Origin: a bacterium
GTDB taxonomy: Bacteria > CLD3
Direction of reading: 5' to 3'
Assembly (NCBI GenBank): GCA_020850775.1
Contig: JADZEA010000034.1
Coordinates: 1 to 62,545, forward strand
Length of the DNA: 62,545 nt
A program made the translations under genes and the position numbers. The notes under the pieces were generated by a model. The model searched no databases, was not told where the DNA came from, and was given only the letters and a program-made list of their open reading frames with translations. This document shows, one piece after another, positions 1,767 through 60,896 of this stretch. Every line of letters begins with the position of its first letter. The first letter of the stretch is position 1.

Positions 1767-4700
1767 ATGTTTCTGCAAATTTTTCTGTTTGAACTGAAGC
1801 TAAAACTAAAACAAGCCAATTTTTGGGTTTTTACTTTGATGTTTTTGCTTCTGACCTTTGGTGCAATTTCTACAGATTCAATAAAAATTGGTGGTTCAAT
1901 TGGAAGTGTTTTCAAAAACTCACCTTTTGTAATCACTCAAATGCTTACAATTATGACTGTTGTTGGCGTTTTTGTAATCAATACTTTTGTTGCAAATTCA
2001 ATTGTCAGGGATTTTGAACTTGAAACTTACTCAACCTTCTTCACAACACCAATCAAAAAATTTGATTACCTTTTTGGTCGTTTTTCAGCTTCGTTTCTGG
2101 TTGCATTTTTAGTTTTTGTCGGTTGTGCTTTGGGAATTTTGATTGGAAGTTTTATGCCTTGGCAAGAACCTGAAAGAATTGCAGGTTTTGATTTTAGTTA
2201 CTACGTTAACACTCTGTTTGTTTTCGTTTTGCCAAACGTGTTTTTTATGGGAAGCGTGTTTTTTACACTCGCAACACTCACCCGAAGTTCGCTCTACTCA
2301 AACATTGGTGTGATTGTATTTTTTATGGCTTTTGTGGTTTCATCGGTTTTTTTAGAAGACCTTGACAACCAATTTTTAGCTGCTTTACTTGACCCTTTCG
2401 GGATTGGTGCGTTTACTTACGCAACAAAATATTGGACAATCATTGAAAAAAACACACAAAATATTTTGCCTTCCGGTGTCGTCTTGCTAAACAGACTTTT
2501 TTGGACTTCCGTCTCGCTTCTGACTTTGGTTTTAGCGTTTTTCAGGTTTGAACTCGCAATGCCAAAAATCAAAACCAAACGCAACAGGAAAAACTCACAC
2601 GAAAACGGAACTTTACCCGTTTCACTGACAATCCCGAAAGTTTCGCAAAATTTTTCCGGCTGGCTCTCACTCAGTCAGCTTTTAACTCAGGTAAAAATTG
2701 AGTTTATCGGAACAGTAAAAAGCGTTCCGTTTTTAATTATGACTATTTTTGGTGTGTTAAACTTCCTGATTGGTTCAGCTTTTGGCAATGAATTTTACGG
2801 AACTCCCGTTTACCCTGTAACAAAAATGATGCTCAAAACTGTTGAAAACAACTTTTTCCTTTTCATTTTTATCATCTTAACTTTTTACTCAGGTGAGCTT
2901 GTTTGGAAAGAACGAACACTGAAAGTTGACAAAACTTACGACGCTTTTCCTGTTCCTGACTGGTTGCCTTTTGCCTCAAAAATCCTCTCTCTCGTTCTGA
3001 CCGTCGCCTTTTTGCTTTTAGTTGTAACGCTTTCTTCTGTCGGTTTCCAAACTTACAAAGGTTACTACAATTTTGAGTTTGAACTTTACCTGAAAACTCT
3101 TTTTCTGAAAAACCTTGTTACTTTTACTTTAATCTCGGTTTTTGCCTTCTTCGTTCACGTCCTTTTTAACAACAAATTTTTAGGTTACGCGATTGTTGTG
3201 CTTTACTTCATCAGTGAAATTGTTTTGGAAGCGATGGACTACGACCATAAACTTTATCAATTCGCAGGAACTCCGCAAACAATTTATTCAGACATCAACG
3301 GTTACGGACACTTTGTTGAACCAACTGTCTGGTTTAATGTTTACTGGGGTTTTTTTGCAATTATTTTGCTTGTTTTAGCAAAAGTTTTTTGGGTTCGCGG
3401 AACTGAAACAGGTTTCAGAGACAGGTTAAAACTTGCCGAAAGCCGCTTCACTGTTGCAAGTAAATCTTTGTTTTGGTTAGGTTTGGCTGGTTTTTTTGTA
3501 ACCGGAAGCTGGATTTTTTACAACACAAACATTCTGAACGACTACAAAACAGAAGACGACGACAACAAAACTCAGGCTCAGTACGAAAAACTCTACAAAA
3601 AATACGAAAAATTACCTCAACCAAAAATCACAGACGTTAATTGTAGTGTTGATATTTTTCCAAAGGAAAGGAATTTGAGGATAAAAGGTTTTTACCTGCT
3701 GAAAAACAAAACTGAAACAGCGGTTGATTGTGTTCACGTTTTGCTGAACGACGCTCTAAAAATCAACAAACTTGAGTTTCCACAAGGTGAACTTGTTTTG
3801 CAAGACAGTTTGCAAGGTTACTACATTTTTAAACTTGCTCAGGCTTTGCAACCACAGGACACAACAAAACTTGAGTTTGATTTGTCTTACGTAACGAAAG
3901 GTTTTGTAACGAGCCGTTCAAACCTGCAAATCGTGAACAACGGGACTTTTTTCAATAATTTTCAGTTTTTTCCACACATTGGCTACACAGCTGAAAACGA
4001 ACTTCACGACAAAAACGAACGCAAAAAACAAGGTTTGCCTGAACGTGCAAGAATGCCAAAAGTTGACGACGAGCTTGCACGAAAAGAAACTTACCTGACT
4101 AATGATTCAGACTGGATAAATTTTGAAACGATAGTTTCAACAAGCACTGACCAGGTTGCAATTGCTCCGGGTTACTTGCAAAAGGAATGGGTTGAAAATG
4201 AAAGACGATACTTTCACTACAAAATGGACGCACCGATTTTGAATTTTTACTCGTTTCTTTCTGGAAATTATCAAGTTTACAAAGACAAGTGGAACGATGT
4301 AAACATTGAAATTTTTTACAACGAAAAACACAGTTACAACATTGAAAAAATGGTTAAAGGAATTAAAGGTTCGCTTGCTTACTACACAAAAAACTTCAGT
4401 CCGTACCAACACAGGCAAGTCAGAATCATTGAATTTCCTGCTTACGCAAAGTTTGCACAGTCTTTTCCGAACACGATTCCGTACTCTGAAAGTCTTGGAT
4501 TTATTGCAAGGCTTGAAGACGAGAAAGAGATTGATTACGTTTTTTACGTAACGGCACACGAAGTAGCTCACCAGTGGTGGGCACACCAAACCATCGGCGG
4601 AAACGTTCAGGGTTCAACAGTGATGTCTGAAACGATGTCTCAGTACTCTGCTTTGATGGTTATGGAAAAAGAGTATGGAAAAGATAAAATTAAAAAATTT

Positions 4701-5327
4701 TTGAAGCACGAACTTGACCGTTACCTGAAGGGAAGAGGTAGCGAACTTGAAGAGGAATTACCTTTACTGACTTGTGAAAACCAGCCTTACATTCACTACA
4801 ACAAAGGAAGCCTCGTGATGTACGCGTTACGTGATTACGTTGGTGAGGATTCGTTGAACTCTGCTTTGAGAAGCTACCTGAAAGCCACTTCTTTTCAAAA
4901 TCCGCCTTACACGAACTCGCTTGAATTTTTCAGTTACGTTGAAAAAGCTGTTCCCGATTCGTTAAAATATTTACTTGGCGACCTTTTCCAAACGATTACG
5001 CTTTTTGAGAACAAAACTACAAAAGCAGTTTGTTCAAAAACAGCTGACGGAAGGTTTTTGGTAAAACTTGAGATTGAAACCAAGAAATTGCGGGCAAGTG
5101 AAAAAGGTGTTGAGACAGAAATCCCGATTGATGATTACGTTGACATCGGAATTTTAGGCGAAAACGACAAGGAACTTTACCTTCTCAAACACAAAATTAA
5201 CAAGCAAAAAATTGAGTTTGAAATTGTTGTTGGCGAGCTTCCCAAAAAAGCAGGAATTGACCCGTACGTAAAATTAGTTGACCGAAACTCCGACGACAAC
5301 CTGAAAAACGTGGAGGAAAATTTTTGA
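1767..5327 (+). CDS. ABC-2-type permease fused to an M1-family (gluzincin) peptidase domain
   Basis: 1186-aa ORF. The first ~590 aa contain about 13 hydrophobic segments. The C-terminal ~600 aa carry HEVAHQWW followed by a downstream Glu, an HEXXH...E zinc site. Confidence 0.85.
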   Translation: MFLQIFLFELKLKLKQANFWVFTLMFLLLTFGAISTDSIKIGGSIGSVFKNSPFVITQMLTIMTVVGVFVINTFVANSIVRDFELETYSTFFTTPIKKFDYLFGRFSASFLVAFLVFVGCALGILIGSFMPWQEPERIAGFDFSYYVNTLFVFVLPNVFFMGSVFFTLATLTRSSLYSNIGVIVFFMAFVVSSVFLEDLDNQFLAALLDPFGIGAFTYATKYWTIIEKNTQNILPSGVVLLNRLFWTSVSLLTLVLAFFRFELAMPKIKTKRNRKNSHENGTLPVSLTIPKVSQNFSGWLSLSQLLTQVKIEFIGTVKSVPFLIMTIFGVLNFLIGSAFGNEFYGTPVYPVTKMMLKTVENNFFLFIFIILTFYSGELVWKERTLKVDKTYDAFPVPDWLPFASKILSLVLTVAFLLLVVTLSSVGFQTYKGYYNFEFELYLKTLFLKNLVTFTLISVFAFFVHVLFNNKFLGYAIVVLYFISEIVLEAMDYDHKLYQFAGTPQTIYSDINGYGHFVEPTVWFNVYWGFFAIILLVLAKVFWVRGTETGFRDRLKLAESRFTVASKSLFWLGLAGFFVTGSWIFYNTNILNDYKTEDDDNKTQAQYEKLYKKYEKLPQPKITDVNCSVDIFPKERNLRIKGFYLLKNKTETAVDCVHVLLNDALKINKLEFPQGELVLQDSLQGYYIFKLAQALQPQDTTKLEFDLSYVTKGFVTSRSNLQIVNNGTFFNNFQFFPHIGYTAENELHDKNERKKQGLPERARMPKVDDELARKETYLTNDSDWINFETIVSTSTDQVAIAPGYLQKEWVENERRYFHYKMDAPILNFYSFLSGNYQVYKDKWNDVNIEIFYNEKHSYNIEKMVKGIKGSLAYYTKNFSPYQHRQVRIIEFPAYAKFAQSFPNTIPYSESLGFIARLEDEKEIDYVFYVTAHEVAHQWWAHQTIGGNVQGSTVMSETMSQYSALMVMEKEYGKDKIKKFLKHELDRYLKGRGSELEEELPLLTCENQPYIHYNKGSLVMYALRDYVGEDSLNSALRSYLKATSFQNPPYTNSLEFFSYVEKAVPDSLKYLLGDLFQTITLFENKTTKAVCSKTADGRFLVKLEIETKKLRASEKGVETEIPIDDYVDIGILGENDKELYLLKHKINKQKIEFEIVVGELPKKAGIDPYVKLVDRNSDDNLKNVEENF
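5284..5327. repeat. Direct repeat copy 1 (44 bp), the last 44 nt of CDS 1767..5327 including its stop
   Basis: gaaactccgacgacaacctgaaaaacgtggaggaaaatttttga is identical base for base to 6159..6202. Confidence 0.95.
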
Positions 5328-5361
5328 GTTGGAGACACGGCTAAAAATCTGCAAAAATTTA

Positions 5362-5407
5362 TTGACTAATCTTTGTTGACGAACTAAATTTAATTTAGTT
5401 AATTAAC
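5362..5407 (+). promoter_or_regulatory. Promoter-like element overlapping palindromes, upstream of the NYN gene
   Basis: TTGACT (5362-5367), a 17-nt spacer, then TAAATT (5385-5390). A 9+1+9 palindrome aactaaatt-t-aatttagtt spans 5382-5400, and a 10-bp palindrome gttaattaac spans 5398-5407. Confidence 0.3.
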
Positions 5408-5411
5408 TACC

Positions 5412-5463
5412 CTTTTGGTTTCGACCAAAGGTACAAGGTCACTTCGGTGACCTTTGTTTTTTT
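5412..5463 (+). terminator. Twin UUCG-tetraloop hairpins, the second followed by a T-run (intrinsic terminator-like)
   Basis: Hairpin 1 is ccttttggt-ttcg-accaaagg (5412-5431, one bulged t). Hairpin 2 is aaggtcac-ttcg-gtgacctt (5435-5454) followed by tgttttttt. Confidence 0.55.
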
Positions 5464-5480
5464 ATCCAAAACCGATTTCT

Positions 5481-6104
5481 ATGAGAACTTTTATCTATGT
5501 TGATGGTTTTAATTTTTACTACAGAGCGATAAAAAATACTCCTTACAAGTGGTTAGATTTTATGTCTCTTTTTAAAAAATTACTTAATGAAAACAATGAA
5601 ATCACAAAAATAAAGTATTTTACTGCTCGTGTTTCAGGTAAGCAAAATAGTAAAAAACCAATAAAACAAGGAACTTATCTTAGAGCATTGGAATCATTTA
5701 TTCCTGAAATTAAAATTTACTACGGACATTTTTTGACTCACGAAATTAACGCTACTTTAGTTACTCCAATAAACAATCAAAAAACAGTAAAAATTATTAA
5801 AACAGAAGAAAAAGGCTCTGATGTTAACATTGCTGTTCATTTATTAAATGACGCTTGGTTGAATAAATACGATTGTGCTGTGATTGTTTCTAACGATAGT
5901 GATTTAGCAGAAGCTATGCGACTTGTAAAAGAACACCACAAAGATAAAATTCTTGGCTTACTAATTCCAGGTAAAACTCACCCGTCAAAGGAACTTATCA
6001 AACACTCTGATTTTGTTAAACAAATCAGGAATGCTGTTTTAGAAAACTCTCAACTACCTAATCCTATTCCTAACTCTAACATTCATAAACCAATTGATTG
6101 GTAA
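5481..6104 (+). CDS. NYN domain-containing protein (PIN-like/LabA-like predicted nuclease)
   Basis: MRTFIYVDGFNFYY, KGSDVNIAVHLLNDA and AVIVSNDSDL match the acidic-residue pattern of NYN domains. I prefer the ATG at 5481 because the TTG at 5454 lies inside the upstream hairpin. Confidence 0.85.
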   Translation: MRTFIYVDGFNFYYRAIKNTPYKWLDFMSLFKKLLNENNEITKIKYFTARVSGKQNSKKPIKQGTYLRALESFIPEIKIYYGHFLTHEINATLVTPINNQKTVKIIKTEEKGSDVNIAVHLLNDAWLNKYDCAVIVSNDSDLAEAMRLVKEHHKDKILGLLIPGKTHPSKELIKHSDFVKQIRNAVLENSQLPNPIPNSNIHKPIDW

Positions 6105-6158
6105 AAATTTTATTAACCATAATTTATGAAGAACAATTCTGTATTTTTTAAATCGGCA

Positions 6159-6202
6159 GAAACTCCGACGACAACCTGAAAAACGTGGAGGAAAATTTTT
6201 GA
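6159..6202. repeat. Direct repeat copy 2 (44 bp), intergenic
   Basis: Identical to 5284..5327. The flanking bases differ on both sides (c versus a upstream, g versus a downstream). Confidence 0.95.
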
Positions 6203-6207
6203 ATTGT

Positions 6208-6287
6208 AAGATTTTCGTTAATTTACTTTTAGCCTTGAAAGTAAAATAAGATTTTCGTTAATTTACTTTTAGCCTTGAAACTAAAAT
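6208..6287. repeat. Tandem direct repeat, 2 x 40 bp, ending 11 nt upstream of the fic start codon
   Basis: aagattttcgttaatttacttttagccttgaaaGtaaaat is followed by the same unit with a single G-to-C change (6241 versus 6281). Unit 1 contains the inverted repeat tttacttt-N8-aaagtaaa, which the change disrupts in unit 2. Confidence 0.95.
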
Positions 6288-6298
6288 AAAAGGAGAAA

Positions 6299-7441
6299 AT
6301 GGAATTAGAAAAATTTAAAGCAGGACACTTTGAAAAAGGTGCAGGTTACTCTTACTTTGTTCCTCAAAAAATAAATCAACAATGGGTTTGGTCGGATGCA
6401 GAATTAAACTTCTTACTTGAAAAAGCATCAATAAAATTAGGCGAACTAAATGTTTTTTCTGGTATTGTGCCAAACATAGATTTGTTTATCCAGATGCTTG
6501 TTACCAACGAAAGTACCCTTTCAAGTAAAATTGAAGGAACAAACACTGACCTGGAAGATGCTTTTTTACCTGAAGAGGAAATAAATCCTGAGAAAAAGTT
6601 AGATTGGCGTGAAGTAAAAAACTACACTGACGCACTGAACAATGCAATTAAAGAATTAGAAAACTTACCTCTTTCAACAAGGCTTCTGAAACAAGCCCAT
6701 CTTATTCTTTTGCAGGGAGTCAGGGGCGAAAACAAACTTCCCGGCGAATTTCGGACAAGCCAAAACTGGATTGGTGGTTCTTCCATTTCCAATGCTGCTT
6801 TTATTCCTCCTTCACACACTTACGTAAACGATTTAGTTGGCGACCTTGAAAACTTTTTGCACAATGAAAAAATTCAAGTTCCTGATTTAATTAAAATTGG
6901 AATTGCTCACTACCAGTTTGAAACGATTCATCCTTTTTTGGATGGAAACGGAAGAATCGGACGTTTGCTGATTACTCTTTACCTTGTCAGTAAAAAAATT
7001 ATGAAAGCTCCTTTGCTTTACCTTTCAGCTTTTTTTGAAAAAGATAAAAACTTGTACTACGAAAGTCTTACACGTGTCAGAGAAAAAAACGATTTGCTTA
7101 ACTGGCTAAAATATTTTTTAACAGGAATTGAACAAATCGCTTCTAACTCTGCAGAAACTCTTGGAAAAGTGTCAGTGCTTCAAAAAAACTTAGAAAAAAA
7201 ACTAACTGAAAATTCAGGCAGGCGAACTCAAAGTGCTTTGAAACTTTTAAATTACTCTTTTAAAAAACCAATTGTCCAGGTCAAAGAAGTCCAAACTGTT
7301 TGCGAATTAAGCCCAAAAGCTGCTAACGACCTCGTGTTTTTTTTTGTTGAAAATAAAATTCTTGCAGAAGTGAAAGGACAAAGACGAAACCGGCTTTTCT
7401 TTTTTGCTGACTACCTGAAACTTTTTAAAAGTTACTCTTAA
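6299..7441 (+). CDS. Fic family protein (predicted AMPylase) with an N-terminal inhibitory-helix motif and a C-terminal wHTH-like region
   Basis: Fic core motif HPFLDGNGRIGR. An N-terminal SSKIEG matches (S/T)xxxE(G/N). The SD aaggag lies 5 nt before the ATG. Confidence 0.92.
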   Translation: MELEKFKAGHFEKGAGYSYFVPQKINQQWVWSDAELNFLLEKASIKLGELNVFSGIVPNIDLFIQMLVTNESTLSSKIEGTNTDLEDAFLPEEEINPEKKLDWREVKNYTDALNNAIKELENLPLSTRLLKQAHLILLQGVRGENKLPGEFRTSQNWIGGSSISNAAFIPPSHTYVNDLVGDLENFLHNEKIQVPDLIKIGIAHYQFETIHPFLDGNGRIGRLLITLYLVSKKIMKAPLLYLSAFFEKDKNLYYESLTRVREKNDLLNWLKYFLTGIEQIASNSAETLGKVSVLQKNLEKKLTENSGRRTQSALKLLNYSFKKPIVQVKEVQTVCELSPKAANDLVFFFVENKILAEVKGQRRNRLFFFADYLKLFKSYS

Positions 7442-47013: not shown

Positions 47014-47694
47014 ATGCAAGAAAATCCACTAATTTTGATTGTTGATGACAGCATTGACAATATTAATCTGATAGAACTTTACATCACGGATTTTGGTTAT
47101 AATTTCTTTTCAACGATTGATTCATTAGAAGTTTTTGATTTAATAAATTTTCAATTGCCGGATTTAATTTTGCTTGATTACCACATGCCAAAGCAAAACG
47201 GTCTTGAAATTTTACAAAAACTTAAAGGAAATCCTGAGTTTTCCTCAATTCCTGTTGTTATGGTTACTGCTGAGACAAGCTCAAAAACTCTTTCCGAATG
47301 CCTTAGAAACGGAGCTGTTGATTACATTAAAAAGCCCGTGAACAAACTTGAACTAAAAGCAAGAATTGAATCGGTTTTGAAAATCCAAACCCTTACAAAA
47401 CAATTGATTGAAGCTGAAAAAGTCTCTACTTTCGCTGCAATGTCAGTTACTACAAACCACGAAATTAACCAACCTTTGACAGTTCTGGTAGGACACACTC
47501 AAATCTTGCGTGTTTTAGTTAAAAGTGGAAAATTATCGGTGGAAGCCATTGAAAAACACATTGATTCCATTGAAAAATCTGCTAAAAAAATCATTGAAAC
47601 ACTTAATAAATTACGTGAAATAGAAAAACCCGAATTTAAAGATTACATTGAAGGGATAAAAATGATTGACCTTCACAAGAATAACCGAACTTAA
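47014..47694 (+). CDS. Response regulator receiver fused to a HisKA-like DHp domain (no ATPase domain)
   Basis: REC domain: ILIVDDS...DLILLDYHMP...VVMVTA...DYIKKP. It is followed by the H-box NHEINQPLTVLVGHTQIL and one more helix, and the ORF ends at 226 aa. Confidence 0.85.
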   Translation: MQENPLILIVDDSIDNINLIELYITDFGYNFFSTIDSLEVFDLINFQLPDLILLDYHMPKQNGLEILQKLKGNPEFSSIPVVMVTAETSSKTLSECLRNGAVDYIKKPVNKLELKARIESVLKIQTLTKQLIEAEKVSTFAAMSVTTNHEINQPLTVLVGHTQILRVLVKSGKLSVEAIEKHIDSIEKSAKKIIETLNKLREIEKPEFKDYIEGIKMIDLHKNNRT

Positions 47695-48782
47695 TTTTTC
47701 GCAAAGATTTTACCGGGAAATTGTTTGATAATTCCTTTAAGTTCAAGTGCTAAAGCAATTGTCAGGCACTTAAAAACAGGAATTTTTGTCTGTTCAGCAA
47801 TAAAATCAATGTGAGAACCATTTGGAGAAAGTGAACTGACTAAAAGCTCTTCCTCAGGTAAAAGCTGGATAAAAACAGAGGTTTGTTTTTGCTCTTTTTG
47901 TTTTGTGTTAAAATAAAATTCCAGTTCGCTAACGATGTCTTCAGCTTTTGTTATGAGTTTTGCACCAAACTGAATCAATTGGTTTGTTCCGGAACTTTTT
48001 GGCGAATTAATAGGTCCGGGAACTGCAAAAACCTCTTTTCCTTGTTCCAAAGCGATGTCAGCAGTAATTTTTGCTCCACTTTTCATTCCAGCTTCAATAA
48101 CTACAACTCCGAGAGACATTCCACTGACAATTCTGTTTCTGACAGGGAAATTTCTTGAATCAGGTTTGGTGCCAAAAAAGAATTCAGAAACAATTGCTCC
48201 ACCATTTTCAATGATTTTTTCAACGATTCTCAGGTTTTCTGAGGGATAAATTACGTCAAGTCCCGAACCAAGAACAGCAACGGTTTTTCCTTTTTTTTCA
48301 AGTGTAAAGTTGTGGGCAACAGAATCGATTCCACGAGCAAAACCACTTACAATTGTGCAATTTTTTTCAATGAGTTCACCAACAATTTTTTCTGTTGCAA
48401 ATTTTCCGTAAACAGTTGGGCTTCGTGTTCCAACAATTGCAATTGGAATGTTTTTAACTTGTGGAAGTTCGCCAAAAACGAACAGAATTGCAGGAGCAGA
48501 AGGAATTTCTTTCAATAAAACCGGAAATTCATCGCTCCAAAAATGAACGACTTTTGCTTGTGTTTTTTCAAGTGTTTTTAATTGGTTTTCAAGCAATTTT
48601 TCGGAATCAAAACTAAGGATTTTTTGGGCAGTGGCTTCGTCAATTCCATTAATTTGTGAAATTTCAGAAACAGAAGCTTTAAAAACGTTTTCAGGGAATG
48701 AAAATTTATCAATTAGTTTACGAATGCGGGTTGGACCAATTGAAGGAATAAGGCTGAGTTTCAGTAGTTTTTCAATGTTCAT
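47691..48782 (-). CDS. dprA: DNA-processing protein DprA
   Basis: IAIVGTRSPTVYG, GFARGIDSVAH and GAKITADIALEQGKEVFAVPG. Confidence 0.92.
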   Translation of the reverse strand: MNIEKLLKLSLIPSIGPTRIRKLIDKFSFPENVFKASVSEISQINGIDEATAQKILSFDSEKLLENQLKTLEKTQAKVVHFWSDEFPVLLKEIPSAPAILFVFGELPQVKNIPIAIVGTRSPTVYGKFATEKIVGELIEKNCTIVSGFARGIDSVAHNFTLEKKGKTVAVLGSGLDVIYPSENLRIVEKIIENGGAIVSEFFFGTKPDSRNFPVRNRIVSGMSLGVVVIEAGMKSGAKITADIALEQGKEVFAVPGPINSPKSSGTNQLIQFGAKLITKAEDIVSELEFYFNTKQKEQKQTSVFIQLLPEEELLVSSLSPNGSHIDFIAEQTKIPVFKCLTIALALELKGIIKQFPGKIFAKN

Positions 48783-59510: not shown

Positions 59511-60896
59511 TTAGTTGTTAAAATCTGTTTTTACTAAAAATAAACTTGTGTCAATTCCCCGCAGAACAAAAAAAGTTACTTCTTTGTCCTTACTTTGTGA
59601 AATTTTTTCAAGAGTTGTTGCAAAATCTTCAACTGTCAGGATTAAAGTAGAATTGATTTTTTGAATAACGTCTCCGTTGGAAATTCCTGCCAAAGCAATC
59701 CAGCTTGCAGGCTCAACGTCAGCAACGTAAACGCCACTAATTTGGTTTGCGATGTTAAAAGTTTTTCTGATGTCAAAAGTAAGTTCAACAACTGTAACCC
59801 CAAATTCTTCATTTTTGTACTCTTCTGCAAAAAATGAGCTTTTTGGTGCTTCGCCAAAAGTTACTCCAAAAACCTGGTCTTCACCGTCGCGAATGACTGT
59901 AAAAATTGCTTCGTCGTTTGGTTTAAATTCACGGACAAGGTTTCTGAAAACCTCTAACTGGTAGTCTTCACGAGCAAAAACCTGAGTAGAATTGATTGAG
60001 GTAATTACGTCACCTTCGCTAAGTCCTGCTTTGTCTGCAGGAGAATCCGGTAAAATTGTTGAAATTACGACACCTTCCCGACCTTTGATTTTCCAGTAAA
60101 TTGCCATTTCTTCTGTCAAAGGTTGTGTTTCAATTCCTAACCAGGCTTTAGATTTGTTCACTTTTTGAGAAAGGTTTTCCAATGCTTTTGCAAACCTTTT
60201 TGAAGTGCTGACAAAACTACAAAACTCAACAGCTCTTCCAAAACCTGTTTCTTCAGGCAAACCGACAACTCCAATTCCCAAACCTGTTTTTAAATCAATT
60301 ATCGGTGAACCGATGTTTCCTTCGTGAGATGGGATGGAAACGCTGACAAAATCTTTTGGTGTTTTCAAAATCCCGTTTACGTAGCCGTTGTAAAAGATTT
60401 TGGAATAATTTTGCTCTTTGTCCAAAGTTGTAATCATCAAAGTTTCATCACCAACGTTTATCGCTTCGCTTGAAAATTTCAGGTAAGTTTTTGGTCGTTT
60501 ACTAACTTCCTCAATTTGTAAAAAAGCAACTTGCAAGTCTTCGTCACGGTCAATTATTTTTGCTTTGGCAGTTTTTTCCTCGCTGAAAATAATTTTAAAA
60601 TCCTCAACTTTTGCACTTGGGTTGAAAGTTGTGTTTGGGAAAATGTGGTCGCTAATCATCACAATTCCGGTGTCAGAAACAACTATTCCAATCGTGTTAC
60701 TTTCAAACTTATCGCCTTTTCCACCAAAAATAGTTGTTAAATCCGCAATAAATTCAACTTGTACAACTGCATTTTTGTAAGTTTGAAAAATTTGGGCAAA
60801 ATCCTTAGAAGTTTTGATTGGGCTTGGAACTTGTGTTTTTTGAGCAGCAAAATTGTTCCCAACTAAAAAAACTAAGACTAAAATTATTTTAAACAT
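59511..60896 (-). CDS. HtrA-like trypsin-fold protein with two PDZ-like domains and a degenerate active site
   Basis: Signal peptide. The His (ISDHIF) and Asp (EDLQVAFLQI) contexts are retained, but GNIGSP stands in place of GNSGGP. Confidence 0.75.
   Translation of the reverse strand: MFKIILVLVFLVGNNFAAQKTQVPSPIKTSKDFAQIFQTYKNAVVQVEFIADLTTIFGGKGDKFESNTIGIVVSDTGIVMISDHIFPNTTFNPSAKVEDFKIIFSEEKTAKAKIIDRDEDLQVAFLQIEEVSKRPKTYLKFSSEAINVGDETLMITTLDKEQNYSKIFYNGYVNGILKTPKDFVSVSIPSHEGNIGSPIIDLKTGLGIGVVGLPEETGFGRAVEFCSFVSTSKRFAKALENLSQKVNKSKAWLGIETQPLTEEMAIYWKIKGREGVVISTILPDSPADKAGLSEGDVITSINSTQVFAREDYQLEVFRNLVREFKPNDEAIFTVIRDGEDQVFGVTFGEAPKSSFFAEEYKNEEFGVTVVELTFDIRKTFNIANQISGVYVADVEPASWIALAGISNGDVIQKINSTLILTVEDFATTLEKISQSKDKEVTFFVLRGIDTSLFLVKTDFNN

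Follow-up and report, generated by a model that had tools for sequence, protein, structure and literature searches.

We analyzed a 62,545-nucleotide stretch of bacterial DNA (contig JADZEA010000034.1 of GenBank assembly GCA_020850775.1, positions 1 to 62,545; here called the window), in which a small gene cassette lies directly downstream of a gene for an ATP-binding cassette type 2 (ABC-2) permease fused to an M1 peptidase (1767..5327, plus strand; Pfam PF01433, PF12730, and PF12698). The final 44 nt of this gene, which encode its end (…R-NSDDNLKNVEENF) and include its TGA stop codon (5284..5327, plus strand; copy 1), recur on the same strand at 6159..6202 (copy 2). The 831 bp between the copies (5328..6158, plus strand; 29.6% GC) hold one complete module of the NYN/HEC-09 type, that is, a promoter-like element, a structured RNA element, and a gene for a 207-residue ribonuclease of the NYN (MARF1/LabA-like) type. 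Downstream of the cassette follow a Fic/DOC gene of the SoFic defense type (6299..7441, plus strand; Pfam Fic_N and Fic; PADLOC SoFic, E = 5e-112) and then mnmG. It is highly probable that the cassette is self-contained, a module of the NYN/HEC-09 type that was inserted recently and is part of a small defense islet. The RNA element ahead of the nuclease gene is absent from Rfam and unmentioned in the literature searched.

Direct sequence comparison and BLAST of the window showed that the two copies agree at 44 of 44 positions, as the initial annotation of this DNA had claimed, and the pair cannot be ascribed to chance because its BLAST E value is 1e-17. To the left of the copies the sequences diverge immediately, and to the right the repeat continues imperfectly for 4 nt, to 5331 and 6206, respectively, with one mismatch (G5328 versus A6203, then TTG in both), giving 47/48. 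The flanking bases therefore do differ on both sides, as had been noted, on the right at the first base. No third copy of the 44-mer on either strand and no further copy of the cassette, which the annotation had proposed to look for, was found within the window. Copy 2 is a truncated, noncoding remnant of the peptidase 3' end, joined to the native downstream DNA (ATTG…). As read directly from the sequence, recombination between the copies would restore ...TGA-ATTG... and leave the peptidase open reading frame (ORF) intact, just as was first proposed. The predicted junction of a cassette-free allele is ...TTTTTGA joined directly to ATTGTAAGATTTTCG, and that of an excised circle is ...AAATCGGCA, followed by the 44-mer and then by GTTGGAGAC....

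Of the features previously reported between the copies, the promoter-like element, a palindrome, the two hairpins, and the NYN gene were located, and the NYN gene is the only ORF there, so that no integrase lies inside the cassette. A promoter scan placed the promoter-like element, TTGACT-17-TAAATT, at 5362..5390 (plus strand), a position that matches a conserved TAnnTTTG-type box of homologous modules; promoter-like matches were no commoner in this region than in shuffled sequences, and the promoter call is weak on its own. An imperfect palindrome at 5375-5407 (16-nt arms, 81% complementary) overlaps the promoter-like -10 region; it is not conserved among homologous modules and may be a chance product of AT-rich DNA. 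The 3' tail of the module occupies 6105..6158 (plus strand), and similarity to other modules stops within a few nucleotides of the junction with copy 2. Among the 14 inverted pairs found, none formed terminal inverted repeats for the cassette.

The composition of the cassette is atypical of the window. The GC content of the NYN gene, 29.5%, ranks second from the bottom among 54 genes (z = -2.1), its GC content at third codon positions (20.8%) is the lowest of the 54 (z = -2.3), and TTA, AGA, and ATA together make up 7.2% of its codons, the mean being 4.5% (z = +1.8). An AT content as high as that of the cassette is reached in only 1.9% of 831-bp windows. The AT-richness and codon excess first noticed by eye are thus real but moderate, at about 2 standard deviations. 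Since the 44-bp repeat is perfect and the composition atypical, the insertion appears to be recent.

The limits of the cassette agree with those of an independently defined unit. Alignment showed that the flanks of the module (the promoter region, the two hairpins, and about 50 nt past the stop codon) are conserved together with the ORF across unrelated NYN contexts. Furthermore, two loci in unrelated contexts encode the identical NYN protein, P0060; the DNA that they have in common amounts to only 855 bp (97.5% identity), which starts 165 nt ahead of the ATG and stops 66 nt past the stop codon, with unrelated DNA on both sides. The insert in the window has 153 nt ahead of the ATG and 54 nt past the stop codon, and because these limits agree, it is the same kind of unit. 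Family homologues were found in 457 plasmid records and 3 phage records. Judging from the sequences, NYN-type modules pass between chromosomes, plasmids, and prophages in units of about 0.85 kb. Of the earlier proposal, the recent acquisition of the cassette is therefore upheld by the unit limits, the composition, the spread on plasmids, and the SoFic neighbor, whereas the proposed origin of the repeat is not, as discussed below.

The NYN gene (5481..6104, plus strand) was assigned by Pfam PF01936 (E = 8e-12) and by the PADLOC profile for HEC-09, PDLC04163 (E = 3.5e-43), with residues 2-207 aligned to positions 3-202 of the 203 in the profile. Its homologues number in the thousands, have a uniform length of about 207 residues, are 65 to 79% identical, and come mostly from Ignavibacteria, Melioribacteraceae, and metagenome-assembled genomes (MAGs) of Bacteroidota. 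A sequence search of solved structures gave no match, and a fold search was needed: the AlphaFold (AF2) model, with a pLDDT of 88.9, was closest to the LabA-like protein 2QIP (E = 1.7e-8) and to the MARF1 NYN domains 6FDL and 5YAA. Four acidic residues (Asp-8, Asp-114, Asp-139, and Asp-141) were invariant in 25 homologues. Because the NYN fold and the invariant acidic residues go together, the protein is probably an active metal-dependent RNase. HEC-09 has been described as an NYN/MARF1-like candidate embedded in Hma defense systems (Payne et al., bioRxiv 10.1101/2024.01.29.577857). In a presence/absence panel of complete Escherichia coli genomes, the module was found solely on small plasmids and at no chromosomal place. 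In three Melioribacteraceae loci (L146-L148, including the complete chromosome CP129490.1), it lies between a gene for an ImuB-like Y-family polymerase and a separate gene for a DnaE-like C-terminal fragment, and in a strain variant (L148) the neighborhood of the module also includes a Y1 transposase and a PemK toxin-antitoxin pair.

The two hairpins that had been noted in the cassette are present and form a conserved, covarying RNA element that includes a terminator (5402..5464, plus strand), as indicated by covariation, a covariance model, and folding. The element ends 17 nt before the NYN ATG, and its 5' flank, AACUACCC, is also conserved. Hairpin 1 (5411-5431) is a bulged stem with a UUCG-type loop; hairpin 2 (5433-5457) is followed by a U-run to 5463 and resembles an intrinsic terminator. 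The minimum free energy of the element is -21.1 kcal/mol (z = -2.7). In a MAFFT alignment of 24 nonidentical upstream regions, the two-helix structure was paired in 93% of the alignment cells, versus 36 to 61% when the partners were slid. Double-sided changes occurred in 16 of the 18 pairs, the observed covariation was reached in none of 500 shuffles, and RNAalifold gave essentially the same fold. In the aligned loci, helix 2 and the U-run constitute an intrinsic terminator that ends 6 to 19 nt before the start codon.

A covariance model of the element (R1) scored 78.9 bits in the window and found one copy directly upstream of the NYN gene in all 32 NYN loci with sufficient upstream sequence, with no other match in 885 kb. 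It also found the element in 14/14 loci from three contexts outside the set used to build the model; in total, the element was present at all 46 chromosomal loci sampled from the subfamily to which the window protein belongs (about 46 to 100% protein identity). Six more distant homologues, five on plasmids and one in a prophage, were divided: three had the upstream layout, two had a convergent element downstream, and one had no match. Upstream matches were obtained for plasmid homologues of 41 to 46% identity in Leptospira and Phaeobacter, with a weak one in E. coli (E = 0.018). Homologues of less than about 35% identity were out of reach of the subfamily model; for these, inspection by eye and folding with RNAfold showed a hairpin and a terminator of different sequence just before the ORF in Thiothrix, Xanthomonas, Klebsiella, Agrobacterium, and Granulicella, and no upstream terminator was seen for the Mycobacterium intracellulare homologue. 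Rfam 15 gave no match to the element at E ≤ 10 in the window or at E ≤ 1 in ten other loci; in the plasmid loci it gave none to the element at E ≤ 0.1, finding only the separate RNAI.

The plasmid and prophage relatives differ in the number and orientation of the RNA units. On 4.6-kb ColE1-type plasmids of E. coli, three to four tandem hairpin units with a period of 33 nt precede the terminator and then the NYN gene. One such array lies at 577-721 of pRHB40-C03_3 (L121, 4.6 kb), apart from the replication RNA, RNAI (344-445); its unit is CCTGTGGCGTGCCGCAGG with the linker AACAACCCC, and tandem 33-nt units of this kind were found in about 49 other Escherichia plasmid records, on small mobilizable plasmids. 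In a Paenarthrobacter plasmid (L123, 2130-2191; 58.5 bits) and in the Mycobacterium phage prophiGD43A-1 prophage (L122, 2119-2191; 37.3 bits), the strand opposite the NYN gene carries the element, right after the NYN stop codon, and each of these copies is preceded by a TTGACA-type promoter of its own. Since they are on the opposite strand and have their own promoters, these convergent elements must be transcribed separately. Together, the tandem arrays in E. coli and the convergent actinobacterial copies argue that the RNA is more than a cis-acting leader.

We propose that the promoter would produce a structured RNA of about 60 nt, comprising the conserved hairpin and then the intrinsic terminator, and that read-through would yield the NYN RNase. 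The RNA might be a partner that inhibits or regulates the RNase or is its substrate, in the manner of type III toxin-antitoxin systems. It is conceivable, if somewhat doubtful, that the pair represents an undescribed class of RNA-protein toxin-antitoxin or abortive-infection module, with a type III-like layout and a PIN-like/NYN nuclease, spread over the chromosomes, plasmids, and prophages of many phyla, in which the RNA inhibits the nuclease or is processed by it. The literature searched contained no link of NYN proteins to type III toxin-antitoxin systems.

The interval that received the cassette is variable among relatives. The permease::peptidase gene is the second of a conserved pair with an ABC-ATPase gene, and this operon was recovered in 80 genomes, with a different downstream neighborhood every time; NYN, Fic, or mnmG followed it in none of the 80. 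The closest peptidases were 63% identical over the C-terminal 399 residues (among species representatives) and 56 to 57% identical over the whole protein (among 5.8 billion proteins), and an empty-site comparison at the DNA level is impossible because the nearest homologue is only 57% identical. The NYN and SoFic genes appear to form a two-gene defense islet between the peptidase gene and mnmG. A tandem duplication of a 40-bp unit (TAAGATTTTCGTTAATTTACTTTTAGCCTTGAAAGTAAAA; 39/40) lies between copy 2 and the SoFic start, at 6207..6286 (plus strand); it begins 4 nt beyond copy 2, which makes it the second local duplication within 130 bp, and a Fic promoter element may have been doubled by it. 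The genes around the cassette are ordinary core genes. The gene list for the window comprised 54 ORFs of more than 100 residues each, and no integrase, transposase, or other mobile-element gene was found in the cassette or in the 53 of these that were scanned (the ORF at 59511-60896 was left unscanned). No tRNA, tmRNA, or Rfam family that might have been an integration target was found in the window. A gene for DNA-processing protein A (DprA; 47691-48782) is present in the window and fits uptake and recombination of single-stranded DNA; DprA is also widespread among noncompetent bacteria.

Three of the 80 genomes with the peptidase operon also had a direct repeat of the peptidase 3' end bracketing unrelated cargo. 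In a Marinoscillum MAG (L058, 7027-8339), two 289-bp copies of about 91% identity, which comprise the peptidase 3' end and its terminator hairpins, flank an intact, minus-strand DUF433/DUF5615 (PIN-like, Mut7-C) toxin-antitoxin pair; the architecture is the same as in the window, with different cargo. In a Balneola MAG (L041, 7218-9600), a perfect 43-bp repeat inside the end of the peptidase gene flanks 2.26 kb with three ORFs, one of them AhpC/TSA-like. Past the 43-bp tract, the upstream copy continues with RVLKEKKKEE to its stop codon, and the downstream remnant continues with a diverged but homologous end, RVLKEVESDSLGE, to its own. In a Balneolaceae chromosome (L032, 7280-8536), a repeat of 63 to 73 bp, 90 to 94% identical and beginning at the peptidase stop codon, flanks a minus-strand gene for a 260-residue lipoprotein-like product. 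Dispersed repeats of this kind numbered eight in 920 kb, and three of the eight were at the peptidase 3' end (P = 0.0008 to 0.006).

Several other repeats were set aside. A perfect 121-bp repeat of the peptidase end (L003, 7148-7489) proved to be a scaffold-gap artifact flanking Ns in a public MAG. The Balneola locus also has a 75-bp element (370-444 and 2244-2373) with terminal inverted repeats, resembling a miniature inverted-repeat transposable element, and this second repeat pair was excluded. About 25 other NYN contexts were without a comparable bracketing repeat. A perfect 18-bp repeat (TCAAACTGACCCACTACC) around an 819-bp NYN module (L095, 330-347 and 1167-1184) was not counted because the 18-mer also stands at the end of the L100 module, which has no copy upstream, and because in L095 it belongs to a palindrome. 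The 186-bp repeats of about 90% identity in L084, L085, and L088 are not a target duplication; at 455-638, 2756-2941, and 3704-3794 they are three paralogous copies of a small gene for 62 residues, around the NYN module and an EamA transporter gene.

We tentatively favor a one-sided homologous, Campbell-type event as the origin of the repeat, an explanation that falls a little short of even odds. The incoming DNA would have carried the module joined to at least 44 to 48 bp of a near-identical peptidase 3' end, its simplest donor being a related strain with the module already after the peptidase gene. A single crossover with the chromosome inside the shared stretch, by a circular or circularized molecule or by an equivalent one-ended event, would leave the peptidase gene intact and contiguous with the module and the resident 3' end downstream as a truncated remnant, so that the upstream copy would have arrived with the incoming DNA and the downstream copy would be the resident end. 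The insertion point would be directly past the permease::peptidase stop codon, in the variable interval that also holds SoFic, and the perfect identity of the copies would make the event recent. The imperfect continuation of the repeat (47/48) argues for two slightly different alleles, alike through ...TGA-NTTG and divergent beyond it, rather than the fill-in of a staggered cut. Among the window and its parallels, the repeats vary in length (43 to 289 bp), position, and identity (91 to 100%), as fits one-sided recombination at a conserved gene end. Because the repeats vary in this way and the copies are similar rather than identical, a fixed-stagger duplication, a break fill-in, and a single attachment (att) core all fit poorly. 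Events of this type are known from experiment: in E. coli, circular molecules that held part of the lacZ end and integrated by a single crossover gave duplications of that end, 109 to 950 bp long and on either side of the insert, in 56 of 60 events (PMC3240628).

Site-specific integration, the origin first suggested, would make the 44-mer an attL/attR core and the insert an integrase-less cassette resembling a cis-mobilizable element (CIME), inserted, and open to excision, by a tyrosine or serine recombinase acting in trans from another part of the genome or from a helper element. It is well established that integrative elements typically have identity segments of tens of base pairs that restore the 3' end of the target gene; the repeat here is perfect, ends close to the stop codon, and has copy 1 in the gene end, and the Balneola locus shows a classic element-borne replacement 3' end. 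We nonetheless consider this origin unlikely. No recombinase is encoded in the cassette or the scanned ORFs, and 831 bp leave no room for arm-type sites besides the promoter and RNA of the module, whose conservation has other causes. Furthermore, the other NYN contexts, two very recent relocations among them, lack bracketing repeats, and the peptidase-end duplications differ in position and length, one of them being 91% identical over 289 bp, which speaks against a fixed core site. As far as the sequences can tell, no test result favors integration in trans, and the attL/attR reading is not sustained.

Since the 40-bp tandem duplication adjoins copy 2, the spot appears prone to local duplication, and an error of break repair or replication stays a rival, albeit a quite improbable one. 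A staggered double-strand break might have had its overhangs of about 44 to 48 nt filled in and a foreign fragment ligated between its ends, or a replication template switch might have copied the module and re-entered 48 nt behind its exit; either would duplicate the target with neither homology nor a recombinase. Clustered small duplications are in general a hallmark of error-prone replicative repair, the scanned ORFs include no recombinase genes, and the P0060 relocations show the module joining unrelated DNA without homology. Fill-in copies, however, are identical at birth and have clean ends, whereas here the repeat continues for 4 nt with a mismatch, and the homologous but diverged copies of the Balneola and Marinoscillum loci are impossible by fill-in.

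The two remaining accounts are very hard to credit. An assembly artifact, in which the 44-mer is a graph node shared by two populations or by a separate small molecule and threaded once, might be suspected in a single MAG contig, with one contig each for the NYN and peptidase genes and with the comparable L003 repeat proved artificial; against it, the window has no Ns or gaps around the repeat, the bracketed segment is exactly one intact module whose limits match the independently defined unit, 44 bp is generally shorter than reads and the usual final k-mers and would be spanned, and even a loop would call for a circle of 875 bp with 44 bp in common with the chromosome, so that the biology would be no different. 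An old, vertically inherited arrangement, in which gene conversion or selection (for example, for signals in copy 2 that act on Fic, which starts about 100 nt downstream) has kept the copies identical, is helped by the lack of a relative close enough to date the insertion, but it is opposed by the absence of NYN, Fic, and mnmG downstream of the operon in the 80 genomes, by the atypical composition, by the inefficiency of conversion over 44 bp and the perfection that a neutral 44-nt remnant would soon lose, and by the lack of any sign of function for a gene-end fragment. An insertion sequence or transposon was rejected, as the cassette has no transposase and no terminal inverted repeats and the duplication is 44 to 48 bp rather than short and of fixed length; a transposon-like module that itself makes the duplication was likewise rejected, as the other NYN contexts and both P0060 contexts are without repeats.

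Taken as a whole, the explanation combining a two-part module, a one-sided homologous origin of the repeat, and the RNA as a partner of the RNase has in our estimate a probability of about 0.5. Several points weigh against it. The recombination step is deduced from its product alone, the circular or one-ended substrate is hypothetical, and a homology of 44 to 48 bp is close to the shortest with which RecA-dependent exchange is efficient. The enrichment of repeats at the peptidase 3' end is partly trivial, as a conserved operon gives way to variable DNA at this point, and if it is counted as one junction in about ten, P is only about 0.04 by our estimate. The two relocated P0060 copies show that modules also move without leaving a duplication. 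As for the module itself, the RNA in the window is a single copy rather than an array, the toxicity of the NYN protein and its inhibition by RNA are putative, and HEC-09 did not protect against the phages with which it was challenged (bioRxiv 10.1101/2024.01.29.577857).

If the RNA and the RNase do form a new class of RNA-protein module, this would account for the negative test of HEC-09, and addiction to the module would account for the persistence of insertions that are flanked by repeats and prone to deletion. A functional RNA partner would define a new RNA-protein toxin-antitoxin or defense class and make a concrete case for testing HEC-09 again together with its RNA, and the many clinical Klebsiella and E. 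coli plasmids that carry homologues would then merit study. This locus also keeps the joint of a recent gain of a small defense-type gene that lacks mobile-element machinery, and it bears on how such genes enter defense islets. The products seen in the window and in the three parallel cases at the same gene point to homologous recombination that is one-sided and takes hold in a conserved gene end, which is testable in pangenomes. As such, the insertion is no more than a modest curiosity, and the greater value lies in the conserved RNA partner of a widespread NYN family, which suggests a type III-like RNA-protein module.

Among known systems, the module is most readily compared with the type III toxin-antitoxin systems (ToxIN, CptIN, and TenpIN), which likewise consist of a promoter, a small structured RNA, a Rho-independent terminator, and an endoribonuclease gene. 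In the window, the RNA gene and the endoribonuclease gene share one locus with an intrinsic terminator between them, the E. coli plasmid relatives have three to four tandem RNA units, the family is frequent on plasmids, and a link to abortive infection or defense is plausible. In contrast, the window nuclease has the NYN (PIN-like) fold instead of the ToxN/AbiQ fold, its RNA is one unit rather than the tandem repeats of a type III antitoxin, as in most members other than those on the small E. coli plasmids, and two actinobacterial members transcribe the RNA convergently from downstream. The protein matches HEC-09 (candidate 09 of the Hma-embedded set in PADLOC-DB v2) from end to end in the profile comparison and shares with it a single gene for an NYN/MARF1-like RNase of about 200 residues, a conserved acidic pocket, and a place among defense genes, here next to SoFic; the description of HEC-09, however, covers the protein alone and reports no associated RNA, and the window gene lies outside an Hma system, after a housekeeping-type operon.

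The insertion can be compared with CIMEs and other integrase-less, att-flanked elements that lie at the 3' ends of protein genes, such as those at the fda locus of Streptococcus thermophilus, in that the repeats rebuild a 3' end, no recombinase lies inside, and mobilization in trans is possible in principle. CIMEs are kilobases long, derive from integrative and conjugative elements or integrative and mobilizable elements, and share their att sites with a known cognate integrase, whereas the window cassette is 0.83 kb, has no helper, and does not reuse its core at other insertions. Campbell-type integration, as by suicide vectors (with a natural analogue in PMC3240628), gives the same picture of an insert bracketed by a gene-end duplication of variable length, with the upstream copy joined to the intact gene and the downstream copy truncated; it differs in that the experiments used 109 to 950 bp of homology against 44 to 48 bp here, and that the window has no vector backbone and a hypothetical circular or one-ended intermediate. 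Finally, the locus is like the known defense islands and hotspots in having a variable interval past a conserved operon, filled with unrelated small defense genes and with no mobile-element genes nearby. Surveys of such hotspots rarely show the joint itself, whereas in the window the junction has been kept as a perfect duplication.

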